Shown one piece after another: positions 389 through 63,586 of a stretch of DNA of 64,000 nt. The position numbers and the translations under genes are program-made. The notes under the pieces are model-generated. The model was given only the letters and a program-made list of their open reading frames with translations. It had not been told where the DNA came from and did no database searches. Within the stretch, counting starts at the first letter, position 1. Each line of letters starts with the position of its first letter. The stretch is from an uncultured virus (IMG/VR IMGVR_UViG_2838022645_000001) (Duplodnaviria > Heunggongvirae > Uroviricota > Caudoviricetes): IMG/VR virus record IMGVR_UViG_2838022645_000001; one strand, 5' to 3'.

Positions 389-1288
389 CTACTCCTTCGC
401 GGGGTGAAGCTCTGGGTGTGCAGGACAGCATGAAATCTCGTGCCCAATCTCTCCGCATGCATCGCACGAAACCATTCGCGCTCGTCGCTGCCTTCCTCTT
501 TCAATCAAATCTTGCATGGCTTCTGGTGGCAGCATTAACAGTGTGACTTGTCGCCGTGGCGGCGCGTCTACCATACGAACTACGCATCCTTCTGTGGGTT
601 TGCTCGTAAATGTACGGAATGGCATTCCGCTATCAGTGGTCCCGGCCAAGACTGTGCAGACATCGCTCTCGCCTCCATCATTGTCGTTCGCTGGCGACTT
701 TCTTTTTGTACGCAACTGCACTCCATAATGGGATTCGTAGAATGCGTTATTGACAAAGTCCTGCACCTCATAAGCGCAGGACATAGCGTCGCGATATATT
801 TCTCGACCTGAGAATCTTAGGATGTGAAACCCTCTTGACTGAATTGCACGATCACGAACTTTGTCTCGCTCGACTTGTTCCTTTGTGGCGTGGTGGAATT
901 CATGCCCATCGCATTCTATCACGAGCCTGAGGTTTTGCGCTTCCTTGGAAAGTACGACAAAGTCGGCGCGGTACTTTCCTATCGAAAATTGCGGTATGAT
1001 CGCCGCGCCGGCTTCAGGTAAGTCGTCCTCCGAAGATGTTCGCTTTAACACCTTAAGAGGAATGGTGTCGTACAACTTAAACTGAAGTCCGACGGCGACA
1101 AGGAGTTGCGCCTCAATCGGGCTGTCGGTGGAAGTTATGGCGCCATCGTCGCAAAGCTCCCCATCCTGAAGTGCTCCATGAACCCAGTTGAACAAAAACG
1201 ATTGAGCGCCATCAAGTATAGGTGCGGCTAGATCACACGTATCCGCCCTCCACGTATCGTCTATCTTTCTGCCCAGCCTAGCCATCAT
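389..1288 (-). CDS. DUF559/Vsr-like endonuclease domain protein
   Basis: QFSIGKYRADF...IECDGHEFH...RDRAIQSRGFHILRFSG motif; start overlaps the integrase stop. Confidence 0.8.
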   Translation of the reverse strand: MMARLGRKIDDTWRADTCDLAAPILDGAQSFLFNWVHGALQDGELCDDGAITSTDSPIEAQLLVAVGLQFKLYDTIPLKVLKRTSSEDDLPEAGAAIIPQFSIGKYRADFVVLSKEAQNLRLVIECDGHEFHHATKEQVERDKVRDRAIQSRGFHILRFSGREIYRDAMSCAYEVQDFVNNAFYESHYGVQLRTKRKSPANDNDGGESDVCTVLAGTTDSGMPFRTFTSKPTEGCVVRMVDAPPRRQVTLLMLPPEAMQDLIERGRQRRARMVSCDACGEIGHEISCCPAHPELHPAKE

Positions 1289-2454
1289 CCTTCCCTCCTC
1301 TTCCTGTCCAGATCAGTCCGCTTGCCCATGCCCTCGGCGAACCTGCCTGACCACGCCAACGGATCATCAAGCCACGGAAGCCGAGCCCACGTCTCTGGCA
1401 CGGGCAGTTTATTGATGGCCTCGATCAGCGGCGCCTGCGGCACGTTGGTGTAATGGCGGCTCATGTCGTCCGCAGCGTGGCCCAGGATCTGATCCTTGAT
1501 ATGCGGGTGAACGCCGGCAACTACCAATCCAGTCGAGCAAGAGTGGCGCCCAGTGTACGGCGCTATATCCCTAATGCCAGACCTTCTGCGAGCTCCGTTG
1601 ATTGCCGTCTTCAGTCCGCCGCCGCCCTCGCCATCTATGTCTGTCACGATCGTGCCGTATGGCTCGCCCTTCGGCGTGCGGAAGAGGCGCGCGTCTTCGG
1701 CAAGCGAATTACGCTTGAGCAAGGCTTCGAGGATGGGCGCTATGAATTCATGGATAGGTATACCACGCGGCTCGCCGGTCTTTGTCTTCGTCAGCGTGAT
1801 CCATCGGCCAGCAATGTTCACCTCCTGCGCTTCGAGTGCAAAAATCTCGATCGGCCGCATACCGGTGTAGAAGAGCGTCGTCATGAGCATGGCGGGGCCA
1901 GGAGACATGGCCGCGATGAACTTTGCTGCGTGCTCGTAGTCGACCGGGAACGTGCCTGCGCGGCGCTTGGCAATGCGGACGACATTGGTGCCCTTGACCT
2001 TCTTCGGTCGCGACCACAGCCGCATTTCCGCCCATCCGTTCTTTACGGCGTGGTTCCAGACCGCAATGAACGGCGTGTAGCATTGCCGGTTGCGCGTCTC
2101 TGGCAGTGCGGTCGGGTAAAGGGCGCGCGCCGCCTCATCGAGATCGTTCTGCTGGATGTCCTTGAGGGGCTTCTTTTCGAAGTGGGCAAAGAGGCCGGAT
2201 GGCGGCTTGCCATATCGAATTCCGAGATACTTAGTCTCGCCGCCGGCTTTTATGTACGACTTGACTGCATCGCCGAATGTACGCGTGGCTTTCGGCCCGA
2301 ATACCTTGTCGCTGGTTATGCTCGCGATCGTTTTTGCGAGGATGGCTTCGGCGACTTCTTTTTCACTAGTTCCTGTAGTTCGGCGTACAGATTGTTTGAG
2401 ATGGGAGCCGCTGATCCACCAGACGTCACCACGCTTGTAGAGCTTGAGGGGCAT
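1285..2454 (-). CDS. int: Tyrosine integrase
   Basis: TGMRPIE (Arg), YTGRH, LGH and RHY catalytic motifs; 389 aa. Confidence 0.93.
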   Translation of the reverse strand: MPLKLYKRGDVWWISGSHLKQSVRRTTGTSEKEVAEAILAKTIASITSDKVFGPKATRTFGDAVKSYIKAGGETKYLGIRYGKPPSGLFAHFEKKPLKDIQQNDLDEAARALYPTALPETRNRQCYTPFIAVWNHAVKNGWAEMRLWSRPKKVKGTNVVRIAKRRAGTFPVDYEHAAKFIAAMSPGPAMLMTTLFYTGMRPIEIFALEAQEVNIAGRWITLTKTKTGEPRGIPIHEFIAPILEALLKRNSLAEDARLFRTPKGEPYGTIVTDIDGEGGGGLKTAINGARRRSGIRDIAPYTGRHSCSTGLVVAGVHPHIKDQILGHAADDMSRHYTNVPQAPLIEAINKLPVPETWARLPWLDDPLAWSGRFAEGMGKRTDLDRKRREG

Positions 2455-2648
2455 CGTAGAATGTCCTTTATAGACTCGATATCGCTATCGGTTAACAGAA
2501 TATCCCTGCCGCGCACCATGCAGAAGCCGTGTTGCTTGGCAATCTTGGCAACGCCACGGTTGGTCAGGCGAAGGTGGTCCGCGGCCTCGGCAAGGGTGTA
2601 TACCTTGCCGAGCGGGCTGTTGTCGTTTGCCGGTTGGCGGGTGCTCAC
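2316..2648 (-). CDS. xis: Excisionase-like HTH protein overlapping the int 5' end
   Basis: YTLAEAADHLRLTNRGV HTH_17-like motif; GTG start at 2648 with GGAGGT SD. Confidence 0.7.
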   Translation of the reverse strand: MSTRQPANDNSPLGKVYTLAEAADHLRLTNRGVAKIAKQHGFCMVRGRDILLTDSDIESIKDILRCPSSSTSVVTSGGSAAPISNNLYAELQELVKKKSPKPSSQKRSRA

Positions 2649-2806
2649 CGCAACACCTCCCGAACGCCACCTTCCAAGCCGCCGGCGGGCGGCTGGTACG
2701 ACTGACAGCCAGCCAGCGAGACAGCTGCCAAAGCCAGCAGCCCCCAAATCAACAGCGTGAGCGGCAGGCCAATGAACATACCTCTGGCGAATTTGTCATC
2801 AGTCAT
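2645..2806 (-). CDS. Small predicted lipoprotein (53 aa, absent from ORF track)
   Basis: Manual translation MTDDKFARGMFIGLPLTLLIWGLLALAAVSLAGC-QSYQPPAGG...; LAGC lipobox; stop overlaps xis start. Confidence 0.65.
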   Translation of the reverse strand: MTDDKFARGMFIGLPLTLLIWGLLALAAVSLAGCQSYQPPAGGLEGGVREVLR

Positions 2807-2820
2807 GACGCGGCCGCCCA

Positions 2821-3087
2821 TCACGCAGCCCGCCCGTTATCATTCGCCACCTGCCGCAGGCGCGCAGCGATCTTCTCGTGCCGGCCCTGGCGCTCGCGGC
2901 CGAACCGGTCGCGCTCATGCCAACGGGCAACGGCGATAAGGCGCTCGGCGGGTGCGCCATGCGTCACGGTGAGGCCGTCGACGACTTCCGTGCCGGAGCC
3001 GGTGTACGGCGGCTTGGGAGAGGGCGCGTAGGCGGGGGTGGTTGTTGCTGTCTGGGAGCGGGGCGCGGTGGTTTGTCTTCTGGTCAT
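2821..3087 (-). CDS. Hypothetical protein ending ANDNGRAA
   Basis: ATG at 3087 with GAAGGAG SD and CACCAC. Confidence 0.7.
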   Translation of the reverse strand: MTRRQTTAPRSQTATTTPAYAPSPKPPYTGSGTEVVDGLTVTHGAPAERLIAVARWHERDRFGRERQGRHEKIAARLRQVANDNGRAA

Positions 3088-4961: not shown

Positions 4962-4964
4962 GAA

Positions 4965-5714
4965 TTAAGCATATTTTCCAGAAAGTATGATCGGATGCAC
5001 GCTTATGACCTTGCCTCGATCGAATTCGATTCGCTTCTGCGGGTTGTGCTGCTGCAGTACAAGCTTATTGCCGGTCCAGCCGACGAACTCCTTAATGAAG
5101 CCGTGGGGAGCCGCGCCTTCCTCGCCCGGCTTGATCTGCACGATCACGTCATCGCCTCGGCGGGGCGGCTTGTTCGGGTGGACATAGACCGTCTCGCCGG
5201 GCCGATACCGCGGCGACATCGACTCGCCGTCGACATAGACGCTATAGGCGCCATTGACGTTCACGAGCAAGGGCGGGCAGGCGACCCAGTCCTGCACCTG
5301 GCCGTTAAAAATGTACTCGCCGTCATCACCTCCGACGACCTCGCCGAGAACCGGAATCATCTTGCCGGGCCGCGTAAATGGTACGACTTCCACCATCTTG
5401 GCGTTCGGCACCGGCGAGTCGTCATCCGTGATCACGCCGGGAGGAAATGCCGAACTCGGCGTCAGCGGCGATAGCGGCGGCAGTTTCGTCTTGCGGTCCG
5501 GATCGCGACCAGCCTCGATCATCATCTCGCGCATCTCGTCTTCGTCGATCAGCAGCATGCGCGCGATCTCGCGCCAATAGCTGGATGACTTGGCCCTACC
5601 GTTGAAGAGGTTGTTGACCGCCTGCTGCGTGATTTGCAGCTCGCGAGAAATGTCGGCCTGAGTGACGCCGGTCTTCTTGGACTGCTCATGTAACTTTTCT
5701 GTCAATCGAGACAT
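4965..5714 (-). CDS. cI: CI-like repressor (HTH + S24 autopeptidase)
   Basis: QADISRELQITQQAVNNLF HTH; GESMSP serine and FIKEF lysine present. Confidence 0.92.
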   Translation of the reverse strand: MSRLTEKLHEQSKKTGVTQADISRELQITQQAVNNLFNGRAKSSSYWREIARMLLIDEDEMREMMIEAGRDPDRKTKLPPLSPLTPSSAFPPGVITDDDSPVPNAKMVEVVPFTRPGKMIPVLGEVVGGDDGEYIFNGQVQDWVACPPLLVNVNGAYSVYVDGESMSPRYRPGETVYVHPNKPPRRGDDVIVQIKPGEEGAAPHGFIKEFVGWTGNKLVLQQHNPQKRIEFDRGKVISVHPIILSGKYA

Positions 5715-6386: not shown

Positions 6387-7007
6387 TCAGCCGGCAGGAA
6401 TCCGCTCAGAAAGGACAATGGCATGCACGGCTTCGACATCGCGAACATTCACCGGCTGCCCAGCGTCGCGCGTCAGGCTAGCCGTGCCATTGCCCAGCGA
6501 CTGCAGCCGGCCGAGCCATGCCGATCCCCCCTTGGCATGCACCAGCACTTCATGGCCTGGCTTCGGCCAGACGCCTGGATCCACCCACGCGCGGGTGCCG
6601 ACGGGCAGCGCCGGCTCCATGACCTTCGTATCGATGTCGATCCAGTATCGGCCTTCCGGAATGCGCTTGCGGCCGTTGTTGAAAGCTTCGAACGCATATT
6701 TGCCGTCTTTTCGATCGCTGACGCGACCATAAGTCTTGGCCGTATTGAAGACGCCGGTTCTCGGCACCGGCGAGGCAGCTGCTTGCCGCGCCTCGATCAC
6801 CAGCGCCTCGAGCTCGTCGTGCGTCACGCCGAGGAATTCGGCAAGCGAGGCATACATATCGGGCCGCGGCGTGCCGCCGTTCTTCCATCTGTTGTAGGTC
6901 TGCTGCAGCCAGCCGTGGCGCTCGGCGACTTCGCGATCGGAATCGCCGCCCTGCTTTTCAATAATCAATCGCGCCAGGCGAGTTCTTTGTTTTTGCTGAC
7001 GCGGCAT
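6387..7007 (-). CDS. Second repressor-like protein (XRE HTH + degenerate S24-like domain)
   Basis: DREVAERHGWLQQTYNRWKNG HTH; TKVMEP and WLGRL in place of the catalytic SM and K motifs. Confidence 0.8.
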   Translation of the reverse strand: MPRQQKQRTRLARLIIEKQGGDSDREVAERHGWLQQTYNRWKNGGTPRPDMYASLAEFLGVTHDELEALVIEARQAAASPVPRTGVFNTAKTYGRVSDRKDGKYAFEAFNNGRKRIPEGRYWIDIDTKVMEPALPVGTRAWVDPGVWPKPGHEVLVHAKGGSAWLGRLQSLGNGTASLTRDAGQPVNVRDVEAVHAIVLSERIPAG

Positions 7008-7056
7008 ATTACACCTTGCGCATAAGGAGATGTTTACACTACACCTAAACTCACTA

Positions 7057-7066
7057 ACAAATTTGT
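7057..7066. promoter_or_regulatory. ACAAATTTGT box 2, between second repressor and cro-like gene
   Basis: Exact palindrome in a divergent intergenic region. Confidence 0.8.
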
Positions 7067-7105
7067 CAAGCAACCAGCTTGGCAGATTCACCACAGAGGA
7101 GACAC

Positions 7106-7438
7106 ATGGAACCGACAGAAATGATGCGCTCGCTGAGAGCGCAAAAGCTCTCGCTGCGCGAAATCGCAGACAGATTGGGCGTCAGCCACCAGACCGTTTT
7201 CTACGCCCTCGGCGGCAAGCGTAGCAAAACACCGAAACGCACCGCAGCCAATGACAACAGTACGGCCGGCCGTGTAGTCCGCCTGTCTCCATGGAACGGC
7301 GGCTGCTCGACGACGAGCGGCATGGCGCCGGTCACCGTGCCGCATATTCCCACCCTGGACACGGCCGAAGTCGAGCCGTCGGACCGTGAGCTGCTGCTGG
7401 CAGGCCTGCAGGTGGCATCGCAGCAGGTGGCGGCATGA
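7106..7438 (+). CDS. Cro-like HTH protein
   Basis: LSLREIADRLGVSHQTVFYAL; divergent from the repressor; CACCACAGAGGAG SD. Confidence 0.75.
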   Translation: MEPTEMMRSLRAQKLSLREIADRLGVSHQTVFYALGGKRSKTPKRTAANDNSTAGRVVRLSPWNGGCSTTSGMAPVTVPHIPTLDTAEVEPSDRELLLAGLQVASQQVAA

Positions 7439-7728: not shown

Positions 7729-8858
7729 GCATGGCGAAGTTTAAAGTTGGCGATCGGGTGCGGTTCGTCGAGAAGTATGGACGCGCAAACAATGGCGACG
7801 AAGCCACCATTACGGGCTTCTGGGCGGAAGATGGCGTGAGGGTCAATGTCGACGGCGACAAGGGTTCACACAGTTGCCTCATGAGCCGCGTCGAACTCGT
7901 GCCGGCATGGCAGCCGAAGGTCGGGGACCGGGTGGTGTGGCTGGAGCCATTCAAGGCGTCCATGTACACCAAGGGCAAGGAGTACCTGATCCACAAGGAG
8001 GAGTACGGCACGCTGTTAATCACCGATGACACCGACAACCTGCATCATTCGTGGAACCGCGAAAACATTCCAGCATCGTTCTCGCTCGTCGCGCCGCTCA
8101 CCATCGAGGCCGGCAAGTTCTACAAGACGCGCGACGGCCGCAAGGTCGGGCCGATGGGCGGCGATGTTCATTTCGCGTACGACACCAATGAGCCTTGCTT
8201 GTCAGCCCGCGTGGAAGACAAAACCAGGCTCTTCCGCCAATCATCGGGCATTCACCTTTTTGGCGACGAGAACATCGACCTCATCGCCGAATGGGTCGAC
8301 GAACCCGTTGCGGTTGCGGCAAGCAACGACAACCGCGCCGATGCAGGTGGCGGATTCAAGGTAGGTGACCGCTTGCGGCTGATTGACTCTCCGCTGCAAA
8401 ACATGCCGCTGGGCACGGAAGTAATCGCCGTTGCTCGGACGGGCGGAGTCCCGTCATCAGTTCATTTCGAACAGGACGGCAGGACTACTTGGCGCCCAGG
8501 TTCATATTTCGAACTGGTCACCACACCGGCCCCCACCGCCATCGTCGCCCTGATCGAAGACGGCCAGCCGAAACCACCCGTTCTGCCGCACGTCCACGCC
8601 ACCGAAGCAGCTGCGGCCAAGGAAGCGGCGCGCCTTGCGTCCGTTCACAAGGGCCAGCAATTCGGCGTCTACGTCCTGACAACCACCAGCCAGGAAGCGG
8701 CGCCGACCTACGCCCACGAATGGCAGCGGCTTGCTGTCGCCGGTCGCAAGATCGACGCCATCAAGGAACTGCGTTCTGTTACGGGGATGCAGCTGAAGCC
8801 GGCCAAGGACGTTGTCGAGCATTTCGTCGACAACCCGTACGGTCAGCTCGCCGCCTAA
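7725..8858 (+). CDS. Multi-domain protein with three KVGDR SH3-like modules and a C-terminal L7/L12-CTD-like domain
   Basis: FKVGDRV, PKVGDRV, FKVGDRL; KIDAIKELRSVTGMQLKPAKDVVE. Confidence 0.7.
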   Translation: MSMAKFKVGDRVRFVEKYGRANNGDEATITGFWAEDGVRVNVDGDKGSHSCLMSRVELVPAWQPKVGDRVVWLEPFKASMYTKGKEYLIHKEEYGTLLITDDTDNLHHSWNRENIPASFSLVAPLTIEAGKFYKTRDGRKVGPMGGDVHFAYDTNEPCLSARVEDKTRLFRQSSGIHLFGDENIDLIAEWVDEPVAVAASNDNRADAGGGFKVGDRLRLIDSPLQNMPLGTEVIAVARTGGVPSSVHFEQDGRTTWRPGSYFELVTTPAPTAIVALIEDGQPKPPVLPHVHATEAAAAKEAARLASVHKGQQFGVYVLTTTSQEAAPTYAHEWQRLAVAGRKIDAIKELRSVTGMQLKPAKDVVEHFVDNPYGQLAA

Positions 8859-14360: not shown

Positions 14361-14872
14361 CCTACGCCCAAAGGCCCGCCGGCTTCGACGCCGCCCTGCT
14401 TGCCTATCTGCCCGCGCTGCGTCGCCAAGCCAAGTACATGGCCGGCGCGCACCACGAGGATCTGCTGCAGGACACGATCGCCATGATGCTCAGTCTTGCC
14501 GAAAAGTGCCGCGTCGAGACGTTCCGCACCTGGGCGCAAATCATCATGCGGCGGGCGGCCAGCAACCACAAACGAGCAATGCGGGCCGAGAAGCGGGCCG
14601 CGCCTACTGTAGATCTCGCTGCGGCTGGCCGCGTCGGTACGCCACCGGCGCAAGAACACGCCGCCGATCTCGCGATCGTCACCGAGGTGCTGGCCGGCAT
14701 ACGGCACGGCGACATCGTGCTGCGACGCGCAGATGACGAGCTCTTGCGCGAGATCGGCGATGAGCGCGGCGTCGGCCGTGAGGCGGTGCGACAGCTTGAG
14801 GCCAAGGCCCGGGCAAGACTTTTAGACGTTCTCAGTATGAAGGAGGCCAACAATGGAAGCAGCAAACGATAA
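14357..14872 (+). CDS. ECF sigma-factor-like protein 1
   Basis: EDLLQDT region 2; LREIGDERGVGREAVRQLEAKA region 4. Confidence 0.8.
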   Translation: MTYAQRPAGFDAALLAYLPALRRQAKYMAGAHHEDLLQDTIAMMLSLAEKCRVETFRTWAQIIMRRAASNHKRAMRAEKRAAPTVDLAAAGRVGTPPAQEHAADLAIVTEVLAGIRHGDIVLRRADDELLREIGDERGVGREAVRQLEAKARARLLDVLSMKEANNGSSKR

Positions 14873-15347
14873 TCGGCCGGCAGAGTTTGACGCGCGGGTG
14901 ATGGCATATGTTCCGGGCCTCAAAAGGTTGGCGGGCCGGCGAGTGCCAAGAGAGTACCGCGACGACCTCGTGACCGACACGATCATGTATGCCTTGGCTC
15001 ACTGGAAGAATTTCCGTGAGGACGGAGGCATGTGGAATTGGCTTGAGTGGTCGATGCGCGGCATCCTCAAAAACGCAGCCACGAAGGCAGCCAACCGCAA
15101 AAAGAACCTGAAATTCGTTCCAATCGAAGACCACATGAACCTCTCAACGCCAGCAACCCAACTGGCCCATGCAGATCTCTCGAAAGCCCTGGACGGCATG
15201 ACCGGGCGGGGCGGCAAGATCGTTGTGCGCCGCGCGCTTGGCCATTCGTTGCGGGAAATCGGCGACGAGATGGGGATGACAAGCGAGCGGGTGCGTCAAC
15301 TTGAGGCGCGAGAGATGAAGCGGCTCAAAGCGGTGAGGGCGGGTTGA
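14853..15347 (+). CDS. ECF sigma-factor-like protein 2
   Basis: DDLVTDT; SLREIGDEMGMTSERVRQLEAR. Confidence 0.8.
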   Translation: MEAANDNRPAEFDARVMAYVPGLKRLAGRRVPREYRDDLVTDTIMYALAHWKNFREDGGMWNWLEWSMRGILKNAATKAANRKKNLKFVPIEDHMNLSTPATQLAHADLSKALDGMTGRGGKIVVRRALGHSLREIGDEMGMTSERVRQLEAREMKRLKAVRAG

Positions 15348-16015: not shown

Positions 16016-17742
16016 TGCTAGAACTCCGCCACTACCAGCGCGCCGCACTCGACGCGCTCTATGCCTATTGGGCCGACGACGGCGGCAACGGGCTGATCGT
16101 GCTGCCGACGGGCGCCGGTAAGGCTCTGGTCATCGCCAAGCTGATCGAGGAACTGCTGGCAGATTATCCAGACATGCGCATCCTCAATGTTACGCATTCC
16201 GCGCCCCTGGTCGGCCAGAACTACCAAGAGTTCCTCGGCTTGTTGCCGTTCGCGCCTGCCGGCATCTATTCGGCGGGTCTGAACCGGCGCGATGCTCGCG
16301 CGCAGGTGCTGTTCTGCGGCATCCAATCGGTCTGGAACAAGGTCGACCAGATCGGCGATATCGATCTGGTCATCGTCGACGAGGCCCACGCCATCTCGCG
16401 AAACGCCAACACGCAATATGGCAAGTTCTTCAAGGCCGTGCGCCAGCGCAATCCGGACAGCCGGACCTGCGGCACGACGGCGACCGACTACCGCATGGAT
16501 TCCGGCCGTCTGACCGACGATCTGGACGATGACGAGGCCGTGGATCCGATCACAGGCGCGCCGCTCAAGTTCAAGCTCTTCGATGATGTCGTCTACGAGA
16601 TCGGCATTGGCGAACTGATCGATCAGGGGTTCCTGACTCGCCTGACCAGTCAGAAAACCACCAGCAAGATCGACCTGAAAGGTGTAGGCACGCGGGGCGG
16701 CGAATACATCCCGGGCCAGGTATCGGAGGCTGCTGAGCGAATTATCGAAGCGGCCGTCGCCGAAGACATGGTTTTGTCAGAAGGCAGGCGAGCTGGCTTG
16801 TTCTTCAGCACCAGCAAGGAGAACGCGGCCCACGTCGCCGAAGCGGTACGCCGCCATGGCCGGACGTGCGCCGTGCTGACGAGCGACAACTCGCACGAGA
16901 CCGACAAGATATTCAAGGCTTTCCGTGCCGGCGAGGTGTGGGCCATCTCCTCGGTAAGCATGATCACGACCGGCACGAATTTTCCGTTCGTCGACTTCAT
17001 CAGCCTGATCTTGTCCACCAAGTCTCCCGGCAAGCTGGTGCAGATCCTCGGCCGCGGTACGCGCAACTCGCCAGGCAAGACCGATTGCCTCATTGCCGAC
17101 CATGGCAAGAACCTCGCCTATCATGGGCCGATCGATCAGATCAGGCCGCGCGAGCCCGGCAAGGGCTTAGGAGAGCAGCCGAAAAAGCTCTGCCCGCAGG
17201 ACCAGATGGACGTCAACGGCAACTGCGGCTGCGGCGAACTCATCCCGATCTCTATCATGACTTGCCAGTGCTGCGGTTATGTCTTTCCGCCCAACGAGGA
17301 GGAGAAGATCACGGCGCAGGCGGACAACACTCCGGTGCTGTCGACGGAAAAGCCTTGGTCTGTTGTTTCGTCGAGGACGTTCCGCCATCACCCTGGGAAG
17401 GACGGCAAGCCAGACTCGGTGAAGTGCACGTACATGGTCGGCATGAAGGCGGTAAACGAATGGCACTGCTGCGGCCACAAGGGGTATCCAAAAAGCAAAG
17501 CCGATAGGTGGTGGATTCTTCACGGCGGCTCCAGGCCGTTCCCTTCGTCTGTTCTCGAATTCCTTGAGCGACAGCATGAGCTGATGGACACGACCGAGGT
17601 GCAACTGGATTATGCACGCAATCCGAAATACCCAGATGTCGTGGCCCATCGCGTTGGACCGCGTGCCGATAACGACAACGCACCAGCACCGGCGAACGAC
17701 AATCGCAGCATCGCCGAGGATTGGGAGGACATTCCGTTCTGA
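16015..17742 (+). CDS. SF2 DEAH helicase (RadD/YejH-like) with Zn finger
   Basis: LPTGAGK, DEAH, TAT, QILGRGTR motifs. Confidence 0.92.
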   Translation: MLELRHYQRAALDALYAYWADDGGNGLIVLPTGAGKALVIAKLIEELLADYPDMRILNVTHSAPLVGQNYQEFLGLLPFAPAGIYSAGLNRRDARAQVLFCGIQSVWNKVDQIGDIDLVIVDEAHAISRNANTQYGKFFKAVRQRNPDSRTCGTTATDYRMDSGRLTDDLDDDEAVDPITGAPLKFKLFDDVVYEIGIGELIDQGFLTRLTSQKTTSKIDLKGVGTRGGEYIPGQVSEAAERIIEAAVAEDMVLSEGRRAGLFFSTSKENAAHVAEAVRRHGRTCAVLTSDNSHETDKIFKAFRAGEVWAISSVSMITTGTNFPFVDFISLILSTKSPGKLVQILGRGTRNSPGKTDCLIADHGKNLAYHGPIDQIRPREPGKGLGEQPKKLCPQDQMDVNGNCGCGELIPISIMTCQCCGYVFPPNEEEKITAQADNTPVLSTEKPWSVVSSRTFRHHPGKDGKPDSVKCTYMVGMKAVNEWHCCGHKGYPKSKADRWWILHGGSRPFPSSVLEFLERQHELMDTTEVQLDYARNPKYPDVVAHRVGPRADNDNAPAPANDNRSIAEDWEDIPF

Positions 17743-18157: not shown

Positions 18158-18675
18158 CCAAAAACGACAACACCAGATTCCTCGCCGGAGACGTCGCCAA
18201 TCTCGAGGCCGAGATCGACGCGCTGCTCGCAGCGTTCCCCGATCTCCAGGAAGACGAAACACTCCGCGCCGACATGCTGGAAGGCGAGACTAACCTCGGC
18301 GCCGTGCTCGCCCGCCTGCTCGGTCACGAGCGCGAAGCGGCCAGCATGGTCAATGCCATCAAGAAGCGCGCCGACGAACTCGACGCCCGCAAGAGGCGTC
18401 AGGAGCGCCGGCAGGCCGCGATGCGTGCGCTCATGCTGCGCCTGATGAAGGCGGCTGGTCTTCCGAAGGCGCCACTTACCGAGGCAACGATCTCGGTGAC
18501 GAAGGGCCGCGACAGCGTCGAAATCGTGGATGAGACGGCCGTGCCCGCGCGGTTCCTCAAGGTCGTGAAGTCGCCGGACAAGACCGCGATTAAGGCGGCG
18601 CTGGACGCTGGCAAGAAGGTCAAGGGCGCGGCGATCAAAACCGGCGATGATGTGCTCACCGTCCGCGCCGCATGA
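18154..18675 (+). CDS. Siphovirus Gp157-family protein
   Basis: Coiled coil followed by VEIVDE..VP....PDKTAIKAALDAG..VKGA. Confidence 0.85.
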   Translation: MTKNDNTRFLAGDVANLEAEIDALLAAFPDLQEDETLRADMLEGETNLGAVLARLLGHEREAASMVNAIKKRADELDARKRRQERRQAAMRALMLRLMKAAGLPKAPLTEATISVTKGRDSVEIVDETAVPARFLKVVKSPDKTAIKAALDAGKKVKGAAIKTGDDVLTVRAA

Positions 18676-19075: not shown

Positions 19076-19711
19076 ATGGCAATGGTTGCCGGAGTTGGCA
19101 TGCACAGTCATGCCGACAGACAACACGACTTCTACGCAACGCCACCAGAAGCCACGCGTGCTCTGCTCGCCATCGAAGACAAGTGGCTGCCTGCCGGTAC
19201 GATCTGGGAGCCCGCGTGTGGCGACGGCGCTATCGCCCAGGTGCTGACAAGCGCTGGCCGCGCCGTTATCTGCACTGACATCGTCGACAGAGGCTTCCCA
19301 GGAACCAAGGTCATGAGCATCTTTGATGCGGACTGGCGTTATCGGTTCCCGGCAATCATCACCAACCCGCCGTTCAAGCTCGCTCGCGAGTTCGTCGACA
19401 AGGCGCTGGAGCGCGCGCCCTACGTCGCCATGTTGCTGCGCCTAGCCTTCCTCGAGGGCGGGGCGCGTAAGCCGTGGTTCGCCAGCGTGCCGTTGGCTCG
19501 CGTCCATGTGGCTTCCCGCCGCCTACCAATGATGCACCGTGACGGATGGACCGGGCCGAAGGCTGGATCCGCCGTATGTCATGCGTGGTTCGTCTTCGAC
19601 AAGCGGCATGAGGGTAGGCCGCAGGTTCAGTGGTTTGACTGGAAAGACTACGCGCCCATGGCGGTGGCGAACGATAACTCACCGGTCGGTGACATGGCGA
19701 GGGCCGCTTAA
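19076..19711 (+). CDS. Amino (N6A/N4C) DNA methyltransferase 1
   Basis: DFYATP, WEPACGDG, ITNPPF. Confidence 0.85.
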   Translation: MAMVAGVGMHSHADRQHDFYATPPEATRALLAIEDKWLPAGTIWEPACGDGAIAQVLTSAGRAVICTDIVDRGFPGTKVMSIFDADWRYRFPAIITNPPFKLAREFVDKALERAPYVAMLLRLAFLEGGARKPWFASVPLARVHVASRRLPMMHRDGWTGPKAGSAVCHAWFVFDKRHEGRPQVQWFDWKDYAPMAVANDNSPVGDMARAA

Positions 19712-20550
19712 TGGCCAAACTCACCAAAGCCCAGGCCAAGGCGCACGCGCAGGCCTGCGATCTGCTCACGAAAGACGCCCTGACCGAAGACGACAAGGAC
19801 TTCGTTCTGAAGAACTGGAACGAGAGCGCCAACCACGTCAATGGCGCGGCTGGTGCGTTCTTCACGCCATACGACATGGCTTTCGACTTCACGATCGACG
19901 CAATCGGACAGGGCGGCTATGGCGGTCGCATCATCGATCTCTGCGCCGGCATCGGCATGCTTTCCTATGCCTGCTGGCACCGCAGCGGCCGCAGGGCGAA
20001 AATCACCTGCGTTGAACGCAATCCTGACTATCTAGCCGTTGGACAGAAGATCCTGCCGGAGGCGGAGTGGATTCTTGCCGATGTGCTGGATGTGCTCGAC
20101 ATGGGGCTGGGCCGGTTTGATGTCGCCATCAGCAACCCTCCGTTCGGCGCGATCAAGCGCGACCGCAACAGCCCGCGCTATACCGGCAAGGATTTCGAAT
20201 TCCATGTCATCGACATCGCTGCGCATCTAGCGAACAGCGGCGCGTTCATCGTGCCGCAGATGTCAGCTGGCTTCAACTACAGTGGCAAGCCTTGCTACGA
20301 GCGCCAGAAAGACGGCAAGGCGGTCAAGTTCCAGGAGTTGACCGGGCTGCACTTCGAGGCTGGCTGCGGCATCGACACGAACTTCTACATCAACGATTGG
20401 AAAGGCGTCTCGCCGATGTGTGAGATCGTCTGCGTCGAATTCGCGAAGGCCGTCGCACCGGCGCCCGAAGTTATTGCGCCAGCAATAACCGCTGTGCCGG
20501 CAAACGATAACAAGCCTTTCCAGACAGACCTTTTCGGAGAAGCAGCATGA
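19711..20550 (+). CDS. Amino (N6A-type) methyltransferase 2
   Basis: GAFFTP, DLCAGIG, ISNPPF. Confidence 0.85.
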   Translation: MAKLTKAQAKAHAQACDLLTKDALTEDDKDFVLKNWNESANHVNGAAGAFFTPYDMAFDFTIDAIGQGGYGGRIIDLCAGIGMLSYACWHRSGRRAKITCVERNPDYLAVGQKILPEAEWILADVLDVLDMGLGRFDVAISNPPFGAIKRDRNSPRYTGKDFEFHVIDIAAHLANSGAFIVPQMSAGFNYSGKPCYERQKDGKAVKFQELTGLHFEAGCGIDTNFYINDWKGVSPMCEIVCVEFAKAVAPAPEVIAPAITAVPANDNKPFQTDLFGEAA

Positions 20551-20903
20551 CCTTCACGCCAACCGCAACAGCGGACGGCCAGCCGACGACGTGCCGCTGC
20601 TGCGGGCGGCACGCGACCGGCATTGGCATCAGCCGCATGAACAAGCCGACGGACGATCCTGGCTATCTCTGCGGCGAGTGCAACCTGCGGATCGAAGAGA
20701 TCAAGCGCGTGCGCCGCATGGATCCTTACGAGCTGGCAGCCAGGCAAGGCGGCATGGACGCAGCCGGCCCGCTGGTCGAGGAGTTCGGCAGCGACCTGGC
20801 GGAGTGGAGCGAAGAGCAGGTGCTCATCTTCTGCGGCACGATTTGGCAGGGCTGCGCAGATCGGCTGCGGGAGTTGATCCGGAAGGGGGATATACCGTTT
20901 TGA
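20547..20903 (+). CDS. Zn-ribbon hypothetical protein (DUF6511-like) ending GDIPF
   Basis: CRCC..CGEC; LAEWSEEQV. Confidence 0.65.
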   Translation: MTFTPTATADGQPTTCRCCGRHATGIGISRMNKPTDDPGYLCGECNLRIEEIKRVRRMDPYELAARQGGMDAAGPLVEEFGSDLAEWSEEQVLIFCGTIWQGCADRLRELIRKGDIPF

Positions 20904-27398: not shown

Positions 27399-28073
27399 GT
27401 GGCATTTGTCTTTGACGATACAGGCGCAAAAGTTGAAATCCACCACAATACAAAGGGTGCGATCAATGAGCATGTCGCAACAGCTTGGCTGATGAAGCAG
27501 GGCTATGACGTGTTCCGCAACTCCTCTCCGCGAGGCAGGGCGGACTTGGTGGCGAACAATTGGGAAGGCTCTGGCTGGGTGCCGATTGACGTAAAGTCGG
27601 AGGGCTTCGACCTAGACGGATTTGCACCCATGAACGAAGGCCAGCGAGACCAAGCGAAGAGGTATGAGGGAGATGACCTGAAGTACCTAGTGGTGATGGA
27701 CAACGGAAACTGCGTTTGGTGGAATGACATCGCAAAAGCGAACCGCCAAGAAGTTGTTGAGACGCATTGGTTCGACCCAACAACTGGGCAGCGCTTCCTT
27801 CACCCACGTAACGATATGTCTAGAAATGAGTGGTCGTTCTTCGGCCACTGGATGATCAAGCATCACAAGGACAAGCTGACTGCGTCGCAGATAGATTTTC
27901 TTTACGGCGTGGCCATAAAGCCGGTCAATAAGGGCGGCGCCCTACTGAAGAGAGAAAAGGAGATGCTGCGCAAGATCCACAGGTTCATCTATCGCAAGAT
28001 AACAGGCATGGATCCAAACACTGGATTGGCTATTGCGGCGAACGATAATACTCCGAAGCAGGAGGCCGCGTGA
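27399..28073 (+). CDS. PD-(D/E)XK nuclease-like protein
   Basis: KGAINE....WLMKQGYDVF...ADLV...IDVKS. Confidence 0.7.
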   Translation: MAFVFDDTGAKVEIHHNTKGAINEHVATAWLMKQGYDVFRNSSPRGRADLVANNWEGSGWVPIDVKSEGFDLDGFAPMNEGQRDQAKRYEGDDLKYLVVMDNGNCVWWNDIAKANRQEVVETHWFDPTTGQRFLHPRNDMSRNEWSFFGHWMIKHHKDKLTASQIDFLYGVAIKPVNKGGALLKREKEMLRKIHRFIYRKITGMDPNTGLAIAANDNTPKQEAA

Positions 28074-29440: not shown

Positions 29441-29518
29441 TGCGGGATAGAGCAGTCTGGTAGCTCGTCAGCCTCATAAGCTGAAGGTCTCTGGTTCAAA
29501 TCCAGATCTCCGCAACCA
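29441..29518 (+). tRNA. tRNA-Met (CAT), atypical initiator-like
   Basis: Cloverleaf, GAGC/GCTC D stem, CAT at 29475-29477, TTCAAAT T loop, encoded CCA. Confidence 0.9.
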
Positions 29519-36899: not shown

Positions 36900-36966
36900 G
36901 TTGTTCGGCTAGGGTAGCTCCCGAAAAGCGTCTGTCCAGGCGCCTGCCGAATACAACAACTGGACG
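36900..36966 (+). ncRNA. Candidate three-way-junction cis-regulatory RNA
   Basis: TTCGGC/GCCGAA, GGG-TAGCT-CCC, GAAAA, GCGTCTG/CAGGCGC; upstream of the GIY-YIG gene. Confidence 0.5.
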
Positions 36967-58643: not shown

Positions 58644-59894
58644 ATGCCCACACCTCGCCTCAGTGACGAACTCGCCAAGGAAGCCGCCGACGCGTTCGAA
58701 GCGCTCGGCAACAAATCGCAGGCCGCCGAACTGCTCGGCCTGCCGCGCAACACGTTCAATTCGCGCCTGAAGATCGCCGCCGAGCGCGGCATGTGCGGCA
58801 CGAAGCCGGTTCTGCCGGGGTTCCGCATCGCGCAGATCAGCAACACGCCGAACGGCGACTATATCAAGCAGCGGCCGGAAGCTGGCGCCGAATTCGACAT
58901 CCCAGCCGGGCATACCATCAAGGGCGTCTCTGCGCTCGTCGACGCGGACGGCCGGACTATCCAGCAATGGATCAAGACCCGCAACGAATACGCGCCGCAA
59001 GACGTCGCCGCCATTCTCAAGGAAGCGTTCGTCGATGTGCCGCCGGCTGAGCCTAGAGCACTCAATACCGTCCCGACCGACGACCTTCTGACGCTCACGC
59101 CCCTTGCGGATTTCCACGTCGGTTTGTTCGCATGGCATCGCGAGACAGGCGCCAATTGGGATCTATCGATCGCCGAACGGGTAATCGGCGGGGCGCTCGA
59201 CGAGTTGATCGCCAGAACGCCACCGAGCGGCCATGCCATCGTATTGGGTGGCGGCGACCTGCTCCACTCGGATAGCAATGAGAACAAGACGGCAAAGTCT
59301 GGCAACGTCCTGCAGGTCGACGGGCGTTACCAGAAGGTGCTGATGACGGCGTGCCGACTGGTCGTCCGCGCGATCGACGCCAACCTCGCTAGGCACGGCC
59401 ATGTTACTGTCCGCATCTTGCCGGGCAATCATGACGAACACGCCTCGGTGGCCGTCGCCTACTTCCTGCTGGCCTGGTATCGCAATGAGCCGCGCGTCAC
59501 CGTCGACGTGGATCCGTCGCTGTTCTTCTGGTTCCGCTTCGGGCGCGTCTTATTGGGGGCAACGCACGGCCACACGGTCAAGCTCAAGGATATGGCCAGC
59601 ATCATGGCCCACCGCCGCGCCGAGGACTGGGGCGCTACCGTGCATCGATTCATTCACGGCTTCCACATCCACCACTCGAGCAAGTATGCGACGGAGGGCA
59701 ACGGCGTGATTTCGGAATCGCACCAGACACCGACGCCGCAGGATGCGTGGCATTGGGGCGCAGGCTTCCTGTCTGGCCGCTCGATGCAGTCGATTAGCTA
59801 CCATCGCGAGTTTGGTGAAGTCTCGCGTGTGCGGGTCGCCATGATGGATGCGGCAAACGATAACGAGCCGGCAGAGCAGAGGAGGGCGGCGTGA
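58644..59894 (+). CDS. HTH + calcineurin-like metallophosphoesterase
   Basis: ADFHVG, GGDLLH, PGNHD, THGH, FHIHH. Confidence 0.88.
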   Translation: MPTPRLSDELAKEAADAFEALGNKSQAAELLGLPRNTFNSRLKIAAERGMCGTKPVLPGFRIAQISNTPNGDYIKQRPEAGAEFDIPAGHTIKGVSALVDADGRTIQQWIKTRNEYAPQDVAAILKEAFVDVPPAEPRALNTVPTDDLLTLTPLADFHVGLFAWHRETGANWDLSIAERVIGGALDELIARTPPSGHAIVLGGGDLLHSDSNENKTAKSGNVLQVDGRYQKVLMTACRLVVRAIDANLARHGHVTVRILPGNHDEHASVAVAYFLLAWYRNEPRVTVDVDPSLFFWFRFGRVLLGATHGHTVKLKDMASIMAHRRAEDWGATVHRFIHGFHIHHSSKYATEGNGVISESHQTPTPQDAWHWGAGFLSGRSMQSISYHREFGEVSRVRVAMMDAANDNEPAEQRRAA

Positions 59895-60124: not shown

Positions 60125-60183
60125 CCACCCCTGCCGCCGACCACCAATCGGCGGCAACCAATACCACCACAGAGGAGACTGAA

Positions 60184-60633
60184 ATGCTGAACAGAAGCGC
60201 AAACGCTAAAGCGTATCATGACGCGGGCCTCGTGCCCGCCAACGACAACTATTCCCACGCATCCGCCATCAACCTGTTTGCGGCCGACTGCCACGCAGCA
60301 AGCCGCAAAGCCGGCTGGTGCACGAACCTCGCGACTGGGCGTGCATTGGACAGAAACGTGCCAGAAATGATGATGCTGATCGTGAGCGAAATCAGCGAAG
60401 CCATGGAGGGCTATCGCAAATCTACCGGCGGCAAGGTCAAGATGGACGACAAGCTGCCGCACAGGCCAAACGCTGAAGTCGAACTGGCCGATGCCATGAT
60501 CCGCATCGGCGATCTGGCAACTTTCCTTGGCTTCGACCTGGGCGGCGCGATCGTCGAGAAGATGGCATTCAACGCCAACCGCGAAGATCACAAGATCGAG
60601 AACCGCAAGGCCGCTGGCGGGAAGGCGTTTTGA
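60184..60633 (+). CDS. MazG-like NTP pyrophosphohydrolase
   Basis: LIVSEISEAMEG...EVELADAMIRIGD...KMAFN..R. Confidence 0.85.
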   Translation: MLNRSANAKAYHDAGLVPANDNYSHASAINLFAADCHAASRKAGWCTNLATGRALDRNVPEMMMLIVSEISEAMEGYRKSTGGKVKMDDKLPHRPNAEVELADAMIRIGDLATFLGFDLGGAIVEKMAFNANREDHKIENRKAAGGKAF

Positions 60634-61559
60634 TGACCATGAACACGGCAAGAGAAGCGGCGATGCTGGCCGCTATACCGAATCCGCCAGAACAGTATAA
60701 CCCCGAACCGCTCATGGTCGAAGGCCTTGGCGCCGTTCCTGTGGTGCTGCCGAAGTACTCGCCGGCGAATGACAACGTCGAGGGTGGCAAGCGTTACCAC
60801 AGCGGCGGTCTTGTTGGCGGGCCTGGCGGTGATGTGGCGCCAATCATGAAGATCGACCACGTCATCCCGCGCGCGCAGTACGAGGCCATCATGGAGCGCG
60901 GCCAGTACGTCGGATTGCGTCGACACACAGACATTGGCGCGCGAGTCGTGGCGGCTGTCGAAAAGGAGATTGCCGCCAGCCGTCCCTTGTCCTCGGACAG
61001 CGGACATCCCGCCCGAACCGGCGACTTCATGCAGACGGCGACCGGCCGCAAGTTTTGGCCCCTCGACCCGCGGAGCGAAGAAGTCTTCATCGAGGACATC
61101 GCGCACTCACTGAGCCTGCAATGCCGCTACGCCGGCCACTGCCTGCGCTTCTACAGCGTCGCCGAGCATTGCGTACTCATGGCCCGCAAGCTTCGCTGGG
61201 AAGGCGTGGACGTGGCTCTGTGGGCGCTGCTGCACGATGCGGCGGAAGCCTACACCGTTGACGTTCCGCGCCCGCTCAAGCGCCACCTAGTTGGCTACAA
61301 GGAAGCCGAGGCGAAAGTCATGGCTGCGATCGCCGATCGGTTCGGCCTGGCGGCGGAAATGCCTGCCGTTGTGCATGATGCCGACAACCGCATCATTGCC
61401 GACGAGCTCGTCAACCTCGTGCCGATGGAGTGGCACGCGCGCTATGCGGGCCAGGAACTGGGCGTGACGCTGCGCTACTGGTCGCCGGAGAAGGCGCGGG
61501 AAGAGTTCATGGCGACGTTTGACGCGCTGATGGATTGCAGGGCGAGGGGGATGGCGTGA
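60630..61559 (+). CDS. HD-domain 5'-deoxynucleotidase (YfdR-like) with N-terminal extension
   Basis: DIAHSLS..CRY.GH..FYSVAEH, LLHDAAEAY. Confidence 0.88.
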   Translation: MMTMNTAREAAMLAAIPNPPEQYNPEPLMVEGLGAVPVVLPKYSPANDNVEGGKRYHSGGLVGGPGGDVAPIMKIDHVIPRAQYEAIMERGQYVGLRRHTDIGARVVAAVEKEIAASRPLSSDSGHPARTGDFMQTATGRKFWPLDPRSEEVFIEDIAHSLSLQCRYAGHCLRFYSVAEHCVLMARKLRWEGVDVALWALLHDAAEAYTVDVPRPLKRHLVGYKEAEAKVMAAIADRFGLAAEMPAVVHDADNRIIADELVNLVPMEWHARYAGQELGVTLRYWSPEKAREEFMATFDALMDCRARGMA

Positions 61560-61983: not shown

Positions 61984-62225
61984 TGGACGATATAGCAGTT
62001 TGCGAGCTTTGCGGACACCCGATGGCACCCGGCGAGGAGATGTTCAAATTCCACGGATACAGCGGGCCGTGCCCAGAAGAACCATCGGAGGAGCACCTCA
62101 AGGCGGTAGCGGAGAAGCGCTTTTCGGAGTGGCTAAACGAAGGCCATGAGTTGGCGAAAGCCGCAGGGTGCGGTGTTATCATAAATGTCTCTCCATCATC
62201 AGATGCCGAAGGCGGTGCAGCATGA
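61980..62225 (+). CDS. Hypothetical protein
   Basis: CELCG.PM..GEEMFKFHGYSGPCP. Confidence 0.7.
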   Translation: MMDDIAVCELCGHPMAPGEEMFKFHGYSGPCPEEPSEEHLKAVAEKRFSEWLNEGHELAKAAGCGVIINVSPSSDAEGGAA

Positions 62226-62238
62226 GATCGGCAGTTGA

Positions 62239-62610
62239 ATGGATAATCTGCTTACTCGCAGTTGGCGGCATGGTTTCGGCCATGTGGGTGATGCTGTGAC
62301 CCCAACGCCAAAATACATCGAAACCGTCAAGCGTCGCGTATGGGAAATCCACATTCGCGACCACGACAAGCATATCCGCCGCGAAGATCTGAACGCCGTT
62401 CTCGGCGGAGTCGATTTCGTTCTCGACTACTACAGCAATAAAGTAGCGGAGCTGGAGGCGGTCATCGCAGCAGAGAGGACCACCAACCAAATTGAATGTA
62501 GTCGGTATGCGTACGAGCGTGACGTGGCGCGCCGAGAGCGGGATGACCTTATAGCGCAACAGTCATCCCCCACGCCCACTTCAATCACCGGGGAGACCTT
62601 AGCATCATGA
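62239..62610 (+). CDS. Hypothetical protein
   Basis: ORF within operon. Confidence 0.6.
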   Translation: MDNLLTRSWRHGFGHVGDAVTPTPKYIETVKRRVWEIHIRDHDKHIRREDLNAVLGGVDFVLDYYSNKVAELEAVIAAERTTNQIECSRYAYERDVARRERDDLIAQQSSPTPTSITGETLAS

Positions 62611-62897
62611 CAACAATGATCGAGCGGGTGGCGCGGGCCATAGCAAAAGAAAACAATACGGACGCTGCATTTGATCTCCCTTGGGAGTTCTTTATTGGAC
62701 AAGCCCGCGCCGTCCTTGAAGAGATACGCGAGCCGTCGGCGGCGCAACTGGCCGCCGCTGAGGAGATTGTCGTCGGCTATGACGACTTCGCATGCGGCGA
62801 TGGCAATGTCTATCTCGCCTACCCAGAGTACTACGACAAGGCCAAGCACGTTTGGCAGTCGCTGATAGACGCAGCACTCAAGGAGGAAACACCATGA
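62607..62897 (+). CDS. Hypothetical phage protein
   Basis: MIERVARAI...ARAVLEEIREP...WQSLIDAAL. Confidence 0.75.
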   Translation: MTTMIERVARAIAKENNTDAAFDLPWEFFIGQARAVLEEIREPSAAQLAAAEEIVVGYDDFACGDGNVYLAYPEYYDKAKHVWQSLIDAALKEETP

Positions 62898-63586
62898 CCG
62901 AGAACCAAGTACCAGCCTGGACGCCCGCCGGCGAGCTCACCGCAGTGCCGGCCTCCAATGACAACGTTCCTTCCGAATTGCGCGCGCTTGGCGCGGCAAT
63001 AGGGAAGCATGAAAGTAGCGACAGCCCACAACAGAATATTAGTGCGGCCAACGATAACTTCCCGCCCGTCGTCGCATTCACCGGCCAGGCTGGCGCCGGC
63101 AAGTCTACGGCCACCCGCTACCTCGTCGAGCAGCACGACTATACACTCGTCAAGTTCGCCGGGCCGCTCAAGGATATGATGCGGGCTATTGGTTTGGCGG
63201 AGGATCAGATCGAAGGCGACCTGAAAGAAACGCCGACGCGGCTACTGCAAGGAAAAACACCGCGGCACGCGATGCAGGCCCTTGGTACGGAGTGGGGCAG
63301 GGATCTGATCGGCAAGGATTTCTGGACATTCTTGTGGGAGCATCGCGCTCTTCAGGTCATTGACGCCGGCGGCCGCGTCGTTACAGACGACTGCCGCTTT
63401 CCGAACGAAGCGCAGCTTATCCGCCGACTGGGCGGAGACATCTACAAGATCGCTGGCCGTGGCGGCATTGCTGGTGACCACGTCAGCGAGCGCGGCTGCG
63501 GTGATCAGGATCTGGTGATTGCGAACGCTGGCGCGGTCGCAGAGTTGCACGGCAAGATCGAGGAGGCGCTGCGGCGGTATGGGTGA
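62894..63586 (+). CDS. Deoxynucleoside monophosphate kinase
   Basis: TGQAGAGKST, FAGPLK, TPRHAMQALGTEWGR, DDCRFPNE. Confidence 0.92.
   Translation: MTENQVPAWTPAGELTAVPASNDNVPSELRALGAAIGKHESSDSPQQNISAANDNFPPVVAFTGQAGAGKSTATRYLVEQHDYTLVKFAGPLKDMMRAIGLAEDQIEGDLKETPTRLLQGKTPRHAMQALGTEWGRDLIGKDFWTFLWEHRALQVIDAGGRVVTDDCRFPNEAQLIRRLGGDIYKIAGRGGIAGDHVSERGCGDQDLVIANAGAVAELHGKIEEALRRYG

Follow-up and report, generated by a model that had tools for sequence, protein, structure and literature searches.

In Escherichia coli the ssrA tag left on proteins by trans-translation is read in two places, its head by the adaptor SspB and its end by ClpX (PMC9963277, PMC8512704; these and the other papers cited here are used through extracts), and in Caulobacter, where the tag is AANDNFAEEFAVAA, deletion of sspB slows the degradation of a tagged protein (PMC9393093). 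The temperate mycobacteriophage BPs hard-codes ssrA-like degrons at the C-termini of its repressor and its integrase, bringing host proteolysis into the lysis-lysogeny decision (extract of PMC4557955), and E. coli RseA(1-108) is a natural SspB-dependent ClpXP substrate, the single natural non-ssrA SspB substrate in the table of one review (PMC8138137). Among synthetic degrons, DAS+4 joins an SspB-binding head to a weak ClpX end, making degradation dependent on the adaptor (PMC9382460), and a tandem AANDENY site without ALAA is degraded in E. coli when SspB is present (PMC8512704). Here we describe a 64,000-nucleotide stretch of viral DNA (IMG/VR record IMGVR_UViG_2838022645_000001; the whole stretch analysed is called the window), derived from a Rhizobium prophage, in which the tetrapeptide Ala-Asn-Asp-Asn (ANDN) occurs 19 times in 18 unrelated proteins. 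The motif is identical to the fixed head of the alphaproteobacterial tag, is statistically coupled to the Ala-Ala (AA) end of that tag, and lies in loose regions of lytic-cycle proteins. Chien et al. in 2007 reportedly found that SspB-alpha specifically reads Asn-Asp-Asn.

All 19 copies stand where an earlier note, made from the letters of this DNA, had placed them, and translation of the window in six frames yielded no others: every ANDN is in a coding frame, within 18 of 94 genes. The gene set (94 genes, 19,167 amino acids) was curated with the motif already known, nine genes being added and 12 calls removed as shadow, truncated or edge open reading frames (ORFs); the automatic gene caller alone enclosed 17 of the 19 copies, and two of the added genes hold ANDN (389-1288, with a Pfam DUF559 match, and an ORF ending at 2316, without a family match). 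The note had expected well below one copy by chance, and the computed expectation is 0.19 (Poisson P 2e-31), with a mean of 0.22 and a maximum of 3 in 2000 per-protein shuffles. ANDN is the top-ranked 4-mer of the gene set, ahead by 19 orders of magnitude, and its eleven other permutations occur four times in the window altogether. Slippage is excluded, because NDN is enriched 17-fold while the other seven N/D triplets stay at 0.6-1.5-fold. Host genes outside the prophage (6135 called genes) hold 14 ANDN against 10.3 expected, a rate 130-fold below that of the prophage, and of 49 six-frame copies in the whole 6.49-Mb genome 19 fall in the window, which is ~1% of it. The comparisons proposed in the note, with shuffles, other frames and the host proteome, thus all place ANDN far above its controls.

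Codon use within the 19 copies is free at every position (GCA 7, GCG 6, GCC 6; AAC 16, AAT 3; GAC 10, GAT 9; AAC 15, AAT 4), as the note had observed, and in nine protein families the motif is invariant, with 3-9 spellings per family and flanks that are 15-37% identical. Since the peptide is fixed where synonymous codons and flanks are not, selection acts on the peptide. The near-variants that the note listed are likewise present: SNDN at 8322, 49397 and 62954, ANDH at 13369, ANEN at 28949, DNDN at 17668 and 24137, KNDN at 18160, VNDN at 22608 and GNDN at 25923.

The window corresponds to G000:C9:458-64457 of the 6.49-Mb Rhizobium genome. A 57-bp direct repeat (attL/attR, C9:268-324 and C9:66212-66268) overlaps tRNA-Thr(GGT), and the window is therefore the interior of a ~66-kb prophage at that gene. 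PHROG matches comprise an integrase, two repressors, a replication block (Sak4, DUF669 single-stranded DNA-binding protein (SSB), beta clamp, Cas4-like exonuclease, two sigma factors, helicase, three methyltransferases and primase), an HK97-type head, a siphophage tail, lysis genes and nucleotide enzymes. Synteny and homology with Rhizobium phage 16-3 (NC_011103; same gene order, helicase 82% identical), together with integration between att repeats, make this a 16-3-like temperate siphophage. Phage 16-3 itself has 18 six-frame ANDN, several at sites shared with the prophage; the prophage differs in its integration in tRNA-Thr(GGT) with its own integrase and in ANDN sites that are partly different.

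Carriers account for 16 of 64 non-structural genes and for two (portal and tape measure) of 30 structural or lysis-block genes. The earlier note had assigned most copies to tails or linkers and quoted seven complete C-terminal tags; those seven are letter-exact, but of the remaining copies nine lie in the N-terminal 52 residues, two in tails that do not end in AA (SSB and helicase) and one internally, after a nuclease domain. All are outside matched domains, with one borderline case excepted. The sites, with the lysogeny genes that lack the motif, are as follows.

680..691, minus strand: PANDN at residue 200 of 299, after the DUF559/MTES_1575 nuclease-like domain of gene 389-1288
1285..2454, minus strand: tyrosine integrase, no ANDN and no AA end; ANDN in 0/7 homologues
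2619..2630, minus strand: PANDN near the N-terminus of a probable excisionase
2836..2847, minus strand: tail ANDNGRAA of small hypothetical protein 2821-3087
4965..5714, minus strand: CI-like S24 repressor, no ANDN; 0/10 homologues
6387..7094, minus strand: second repressor-like helix-turn-helix (HTH) protein, no ANDN; 0/11 homologues
7247..7258, plus strand: AANDN after the HTH of the first rightward gene, 7106-7438, which ends VAA (split type); ANDN in 9/9 homologues
8322..8333, plus strand: SNDN in the sole internal low-confidence linker of KOW/SH3 + L12-like protein 7731-8858, which ends LAA
10801..10812, plus strand: AANDN in the tail of the DUF669 SSB-like protein, no AA end; 12/12 homologues
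14862..14873, plus strand: AANDN, N-terminal (residue 4), ECF-like sigma factor
17668..17703, plus strand: DNDN and PANDN in tandem, 8 residues apart, in a helicase tail ending DIPF
18160..18171, plus strand: KNDN at the N-terminus of a Gam-like protein ending RAA; ANDN in its 3 homologues
19667..19678, plus strand: tail ANDN..RAA of DNA methyltransferase 19082-19711
20500..20511, plus strand: tail ANDN..QTDLF..EAA of DNA methyltransferase 19711-20550, with a nested clamp-binding-like motif
20909..20920, plus strand: HANDN, N-terminal (residue 4), C5 methyltransferase 20900-22567
22526..22537, plus strand: tail PANDN..AAA of the same C5 methyltransferase
28038..28049, plus strand: tail AANDN..EAA of gene 27399-28073, phrog_5018 (a family without an assigned function)
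28178..28189, plus strand: AANDN at residue 37 of gene 28070-28999; 7/7 homologues; variant ANEN (28949) near its C-terminus
33579..33590, plus strand: tail PANDN..QAA of the portal protein; 9/17 homologues
42035..42046, plus strand: RANDN at residue 47 of the tape measure protein; 5/11 homologues
59853..59864, plus strand: tail AANDN..RAA of a phosphoesterase/exonuclease-like protein; 11/13 homologues
60238..60249, plus strand: PANDN at residue 19 of a pyrophosphatase
60765..60776, plus strand: PANDN at residue 45 of an HD-domain nucleotidase; 9/12 homologues
62954..63058, plus strand: SNDN (62954) and AANDN (63047) in the N-terminal extension of a dNMP kinase; ANDN in 10/10 homologues

The carrier at 2619..2630 is probably the excisionase, named by its position before int and without a family match; xis of 16-3 also has an N-terminal ANDN. 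The motif is always or mostly kept in SSB, dNMP kinase, the first rightward HTH protein, the phosphoesterase and the helicase (11/12 in the family comparison). In a larger helicase set ANDN occurs in 98/120 homologues, at least twice in 59, with a spacing of 8 in 55 of 60 pairs and an [IV]PF ending. Virion families lack it apart from portal, tape measure and single cases. Going by its structure model, the KOW/SH3-L12 protein is the clearest split case, with SNDN in a linker and the AA end apart, and its homologues have NDN in 100/120 and an AA end in 118/120. This protein consists of tandem KOW/SH3-like barrels and a ribosomal L7/L12-like C-terminal domain, is structurally nearest to Spt5 KOW arrays, has homologues widely misnamed 'ribosomal protein L7/L12', and is a possible phage transcription or translation factor.

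The host's single tmRNA (on C32) encodes the tag ANDNYAEARLAA, which starts with ANDN and ends in AA, as the earlier note's reading demanded, and its head is matched by all 19 copies; a tmRNA search of the window found none. The first Ala of the mature tag is not tmRNA-encoded; Ala precedes ANDN in 7/19 window copies and in 112 of 223 contexts pooled from related genomes, with no GTT-Val excess. The host also encodes the SspB and ClpX that RseA-type substrates require: sspB lies directly after ssrA, the tmRNA gene, its product matches PDB 2NYS, 2QAS and 2QAZ and has its nearest named relatives in Rhizobium, and clpX was found in the genome. An ANDN..AA-stop pattern occurs in 90/97 alphaproteobacterial genomes and in 22/203 other Pseudomonadota genomes, in a census by pattern whose individual matches were not each checked as tmRNA. 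The alphaproteobacterial matches are nearly all single and tag-like, 10-15 residues long, with a variable middle between a fixed head and a fixed AA end, and it is therefore the two constant parts of the tag that the phage reproduces. Among the genomes compared, one has a second tmRNA-like tag coding stretch (G286:C110:74490-74534) and another a second, partial sspB-like match (G304:C1:4957318-4957527).

The link to AA ends holds at the level of protein families, where 33/67 ANDN families mostly end in AA compared with 35/219 of their immediate neighbours (odds ratio 5.1) and 76/720 others; within the window the figures are 8/18 ANDN proteins and 11/24 NDN proteins against 9/70 others. The note had cautioned that terminal AA can arise from translational coupling, but the association persists in uncoupled genes (15/41 ANDN families against 14/109 neighbours), and coupling as the sole origin of AA ends is rejected. 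Families whose ANDN is not in the tail show it as well (20/45 against 38/224 neighbours), the remaining carriers being without an evident degron. In AA tails the motif stands 11-14 residues from the end in 31/38 contexts and 11/14 families; the distance in the host tag is 12. As in encoded ssrA-like degrons, the AA is a free C-terminus, in tails outside matched domains. In E. coli terminal AA is necessary but not sufficient, and an upstream Leu matters (extract of PMC10862746). The seven window tails end RAA, RAA, EAA, AAA, EAA, QAA and RAA, without Leu before AA, and since such tails end in E, Q, R or A before AA and rarely in L, they are probably weak degrons that depend on an adaptor.

Related phages share the motif, as the note had proposed to check. 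Six-frame copies number 18 in RHph_TM3_3_14B and 20 in NV1.1.1, and all eight GTDB prophage loci have 5-11 ANDN in ~21 kb. In a set picked by exonuclease homology and not by the motif (of 160 loci retrieved, 89 spanned at least 12 kb and 72 of these remained after deduplication), ANDN is present in 64/72 loci, with at least three copies in 62, and there are 379 ANDN against 13 ANDD/ANDE; the motif is clade-wide. The 223 distinct contexts come from 21 genomes (the window, 16-3, five helicase relatives and 14 IMG/VR records chosen for holding the motif) and give the consensus [A/P]-A-N-D-N-x-(P), with enrichments of 81-fold for ANDN, 15-fold for DNDN, 7-fold for SNDN, 2.3-fold for ANDE and 1.6-fold for ANDD. 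Sporadic ANDN in further families, such as HNH nucleases, primase and terminase, indicates repeated gain. In another Rhizobiales family, prophage-like regions (L590 and L591) with few homologues to the 16-3 group likewise hold clusters of ANDN. Single loci show other arrangements, with two ANDN in the N-terminal region of the major capsid protein of L591 (genome G304) and four in one tape measure protein of L287 (genome G009). Phage RHph_X2_26, by contrast, shares 20 genes in the same order, has 131/132 genes on one strand and no integrase or repressor match, and contains one NDN against 1.1 expected, with AA ends in 5/132 genes. Because the integrase and repressors lack the motif, as does a relative without repressor or integrase matches, the 'lysogeny safety catch' among the options raised in the earlier note gains support.

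We consider ANDN to be probably a docking site for host SspB-alpha, a conclusion that rests on sequence comparison, and we lean towards adaptor-dependent ClpXP turnover of the carriers as the motif's main purpose. The motif [A/P]-A-N-D-N would dock SspB-alpha as a copy of the unvarying head that mature tmRNA tags have in alphaproteobacteria, SspB would tether the carrier to ClpXP, and ClpX would engage a C-terminal AA, at tag distance or far off in the same chain, or else a loose tail. Early and middle proteins (excisionase, first rightward regulator, SSB, helicase, sigma factor, methyltransferases and nucleotide enzymes) would thereby be short-lived, as would a few assembly proteins (portal, tape measure), with repressors and integrase spared. 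The sites match the tag head and sit in linkers and termini, one of them examined by structure model. In this scheme the motif works like the ssrA tag and yet is not one, being encoded, and often non-terminal or split.

Compared with the alphaproteobacterial ssrA/SspB/ClpXP system, the phage motif has the identical head, (A)ANDN, and in most tail copies AA at 11-14 residues; it differs from the tag proper in being genome-encoded in 18 unrelated proteins, in being often N-terminal, in tandem or split from AA, often with Pro at -1, and in having tails that lack the aromatic residue after the head and rarely end LAA. Phage BPs likewise brings an encoded C-terminal tag to a temperate phage, but, as far as the extract of that paper goes, on two lysogeny proteins and with the ClpX end of the tag, whereas the prophage copies the adaptor-binding head into many lytic-cycle proteins. 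The engineered DAS+4 and tandem AANDENY degrons, as the extracts present them, resemble phage tails with a head and a weak or absent ClpX end, and the tandem ANDN of the helicase; they are synthetic and of E. coli specificity, and the phage tails would be their natural equivalents. In the split carriers the putative SspB site stands apart from AA. RseA is similar in that its SspB site is separate from the C-terminal AA degron, but that site is not known to copy the tag head; RseA also differs in being a single host protein whose degron is exposed by cleavage.

Several observations weigh against this reading. The motif is dispensable, not obligatory, in temperate kin: the complete provirus L679 (genome G321) has both repressors, the same gene order, 16-3-like immunity and replication genes and AA ends in 8/40 genes, yet no NDN, and it offers a natural control. 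The earlier note's interpretation, whose computable predictions were borne out, is partly supported. Together with seven more distant ANDN-free loci, L679 has AA ends in 36/265 genes, so that AA ends exist without the motif. The lytic contrast is one phage, RHph_X2_26, whose lifestyle is inferred from gene content, and a search for its lytic relatives returned two short fragments only. Homologues are not independent, and P values overstate. As for a natural control without SspB, none was found among 45 alphaproteobacteria, and SspB was present in all 49 genomes tested. Seven of the 19 copies are in AA-ending tails, five of these within 10-15 residues, but the other twelve have no AA end at tag distance, and 10/18 carriers have no AA end. 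In the host tag ANDN is followed by an aromatic residue, which is missing from the phage motif. Pro is favoured at -1 (70/223) and at +2 after the motif (91/223), although Pro at -1 occurs in none of the tags seen in the pattern census. Portal and tape measure are virion parts, which is awkward for a pure destruction signal. Nor was a multi-copy ANDE/ANDD counterpart found in the gamma- and betaproteobacterial samples searched, despite their SspB: among the matches listed for AANDE 15-mer seeds in IMG/VR, 0/160 loci had at least three ANDE (with AANDN seeds, again among the matches listed, at least three copies occurred in 5/80 loci at 3 kb and 6/80 at up to 20 kb); 60 gamma/beta genomes gave nine in-frame against 22 off-frame non-tag matches by hand count; and seven gammaproteobacterial phages sharing the helicase gave 0-3 matches against 1-5 in the reversed control.

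Some of these points would suit a motif that binds SspB chiefly for titration or recruitment, with abundant carriers such as SSB, helicase and tape measure sequestering the small SspB pool, shielding proteins from ClpAP or bringing ClpX to replication and assembly complexes for remodelling. The carriers without AA ends fit this, as do SSB and helicase, which keep ANDN (12/12 and 98/120) but end RPW.. or [IV]PF; extracts of the cited papers give only 176-356 SspB dimers per E. coli cell (PMC9382460) and state that SspB blocks ClpAP recognition (PMC9963277). We nevertheless think it unlikely as the chief role, as one abundant decoy would suffice where 67 families carry ANDN, and degradation better accounts for AA co-occurring at native spacing and for repressors being spared. 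It is a good deal less than probable, too, that the likeness to the tag head is convergence and that something other than SspB reads the motif, either a phage peptide-binding protein or protease or host Lon or ClpA. Confinement to one phage group (no copies in X2_26, L679 and the seven more distant loci) and the untag-like flanking Pro would agree with such a reader, and the tandem KOW/SH3 protein, found in 12/12 ANDN-rich genomes and not in X2_26, has fold neighbours that include peptide-binding tandem barrels. But its gene has no match in nine ANDN-bearing loci with at least 9 kb upstream, and a shorter homologue is present in L679, which is free of ANDN. With its own SNDN..AA the protein resembles a client, and no SspB chain is among the fold matches listed. 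The trypsin-like phage protease has a hydrophobic N-terminus and is not in ANDN-rich G003, G005 and G016. Both candidates are disfavoured on these grounds, and ANDN also marks the unrelated prophage-like regions L590 and L591 in other families.

A role without any protein partner, in which the 12-15 bases serve as microhomology for module exchange, descend from DNA copies of tmRNA or act on the ribosome as nascent peptide or codons, has very little probability. Copies do lie at the edges of genes and domains, GCA is somewhat more frequent than elsewhere (65/223 against 243/1226 other Ala-Asn), and 27/223 are identical to the host tmRNA 12-mer; yet none of the 19 in the window is out of frame, called genes account for 230 of 250 copies in the 21 genomes and uncalled open frames for most of the remaining 20, every third codon position is free to vary, the flanks are unlike tmRNA, and an AA at the far end is not predicted. 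A DNA-level element or tmRNA-derived insertion is disfavoured on these grounds. To chance, composition or trinucleotide slippage, for which the near-repeat AAC GAC AAC could speak, we assign a negligible probability, and it is rejected on the Poisson, permutation and NDN figures given above and on the chance-level count in the host.

Docking of the host adaptor, the reading we prefer, may have a parallel outside phages. An N6/N4 DNA methylase of enterobacterial F-like plasmids and similar elements, encoded near antirestriction genes, ends P/G-A-A-N-D-[D/E/N]..A-A, with AAND[D/E]..AA in 25/25 of the cluster members listed and AANDN..AA in other members; judged by sequence, its tail is likely the E. 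coli version of an ssrA mimic. The fifth residue is free in the plasmid methylase and Asn is fixed in the alphaproteobacterial phages, a difference that a fit of each to the adaptor of its own host would predict. This methylase is encoded in at least 5000 PLSDB records (a count of proteins, not of tails), and three copies are located as follows.

L597:10001-10678, minus strand: plasmid N6/N4 methylase
L598:9353-10033, plus strand: plasmid N6/N4 methylase
L604:12001-12684, plus strand: plasmid N6/N4 methylase

A fuller scheme, which we put forward tentatively and regard as doubtful, is an adaptor-gated proteolysis switch built from SspB sites and weak ClpX ends on about a quarter of non-virion genes. 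The lysogen would clear leaky lytic proteins through a small SspB pool; on induction a flood of ANDN, including the tandem sites of SSB and helicase, would saturate SspB, stabilise the clients together and set a threshold for lysis. The plasmid methylase would then embody the same design for E. coli-type SspB, and tag mimicry would be a general means for mobile elements to render proteins transient.

Some carriers have further tail features. QTDLF, QLSLF or QADLF lies between ANDN and AA in methyltransferase tails of the window (20500-20550), L006, L008, L010 and TM3_3_14B, presumably resembling the clamp-binding motif; the phage encodes its own beta clamp (11547-12608), and clamp binding may compete with degradation at these tails. 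DIPF ends both the helicase (gene end 17742) and a DUF6511 protein (gene end 20903), is kept in ANDN-free X2_26 and L679, and has a counterpart of the same type in a plasmid SSB in L604; we take it to resemble the C-terminal tip of bacterial SSB. Elsewhere in the window are a phage-encoded tRNA-Met(CAT) (29441-29518, plus strand) upstream of the terminase genes, a borderline Rfam int-alpA match (35.9 bits, cut-off 35.8; 36902-36966, plus strand) immediately preceding an HNH gene of the head-tail block, a run of 91 N at 3534-3624 inside pentapeptide-repeat gene 3507-4226, whose end is uncertain, and an ATP-dependent DNA ligase-like sequence divided between two ORFs (54555-55570).

Phages are known to encode ssrA-like degrons on single proteins, and a literature search that left subscription papers mostly outside its coverage found no paper on ANDN motifs in phage proteins, on proteome-wide copying of an adaptor-binding head, or on the tag-like tail of the F-plasmid methylase. 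SspB is present in 45/45 alphaproteobacterial genomes tested, set against one natural non-ssrA substrate in the review table (extract of PMC8138137). If our reading is true, common rhizobial temperate phages, classical 16-3 among them, would provide natural SspB clients by the dozen and, for use in alphaproteobacteria, a natural collection of tunable degrons. One four-residue motif would have sufficed for a virus to connect a large part of its proteome to a quality-control adaptor of the host, and 16-3 would give a direct handle on whether host proteolysis sets prophage stability.

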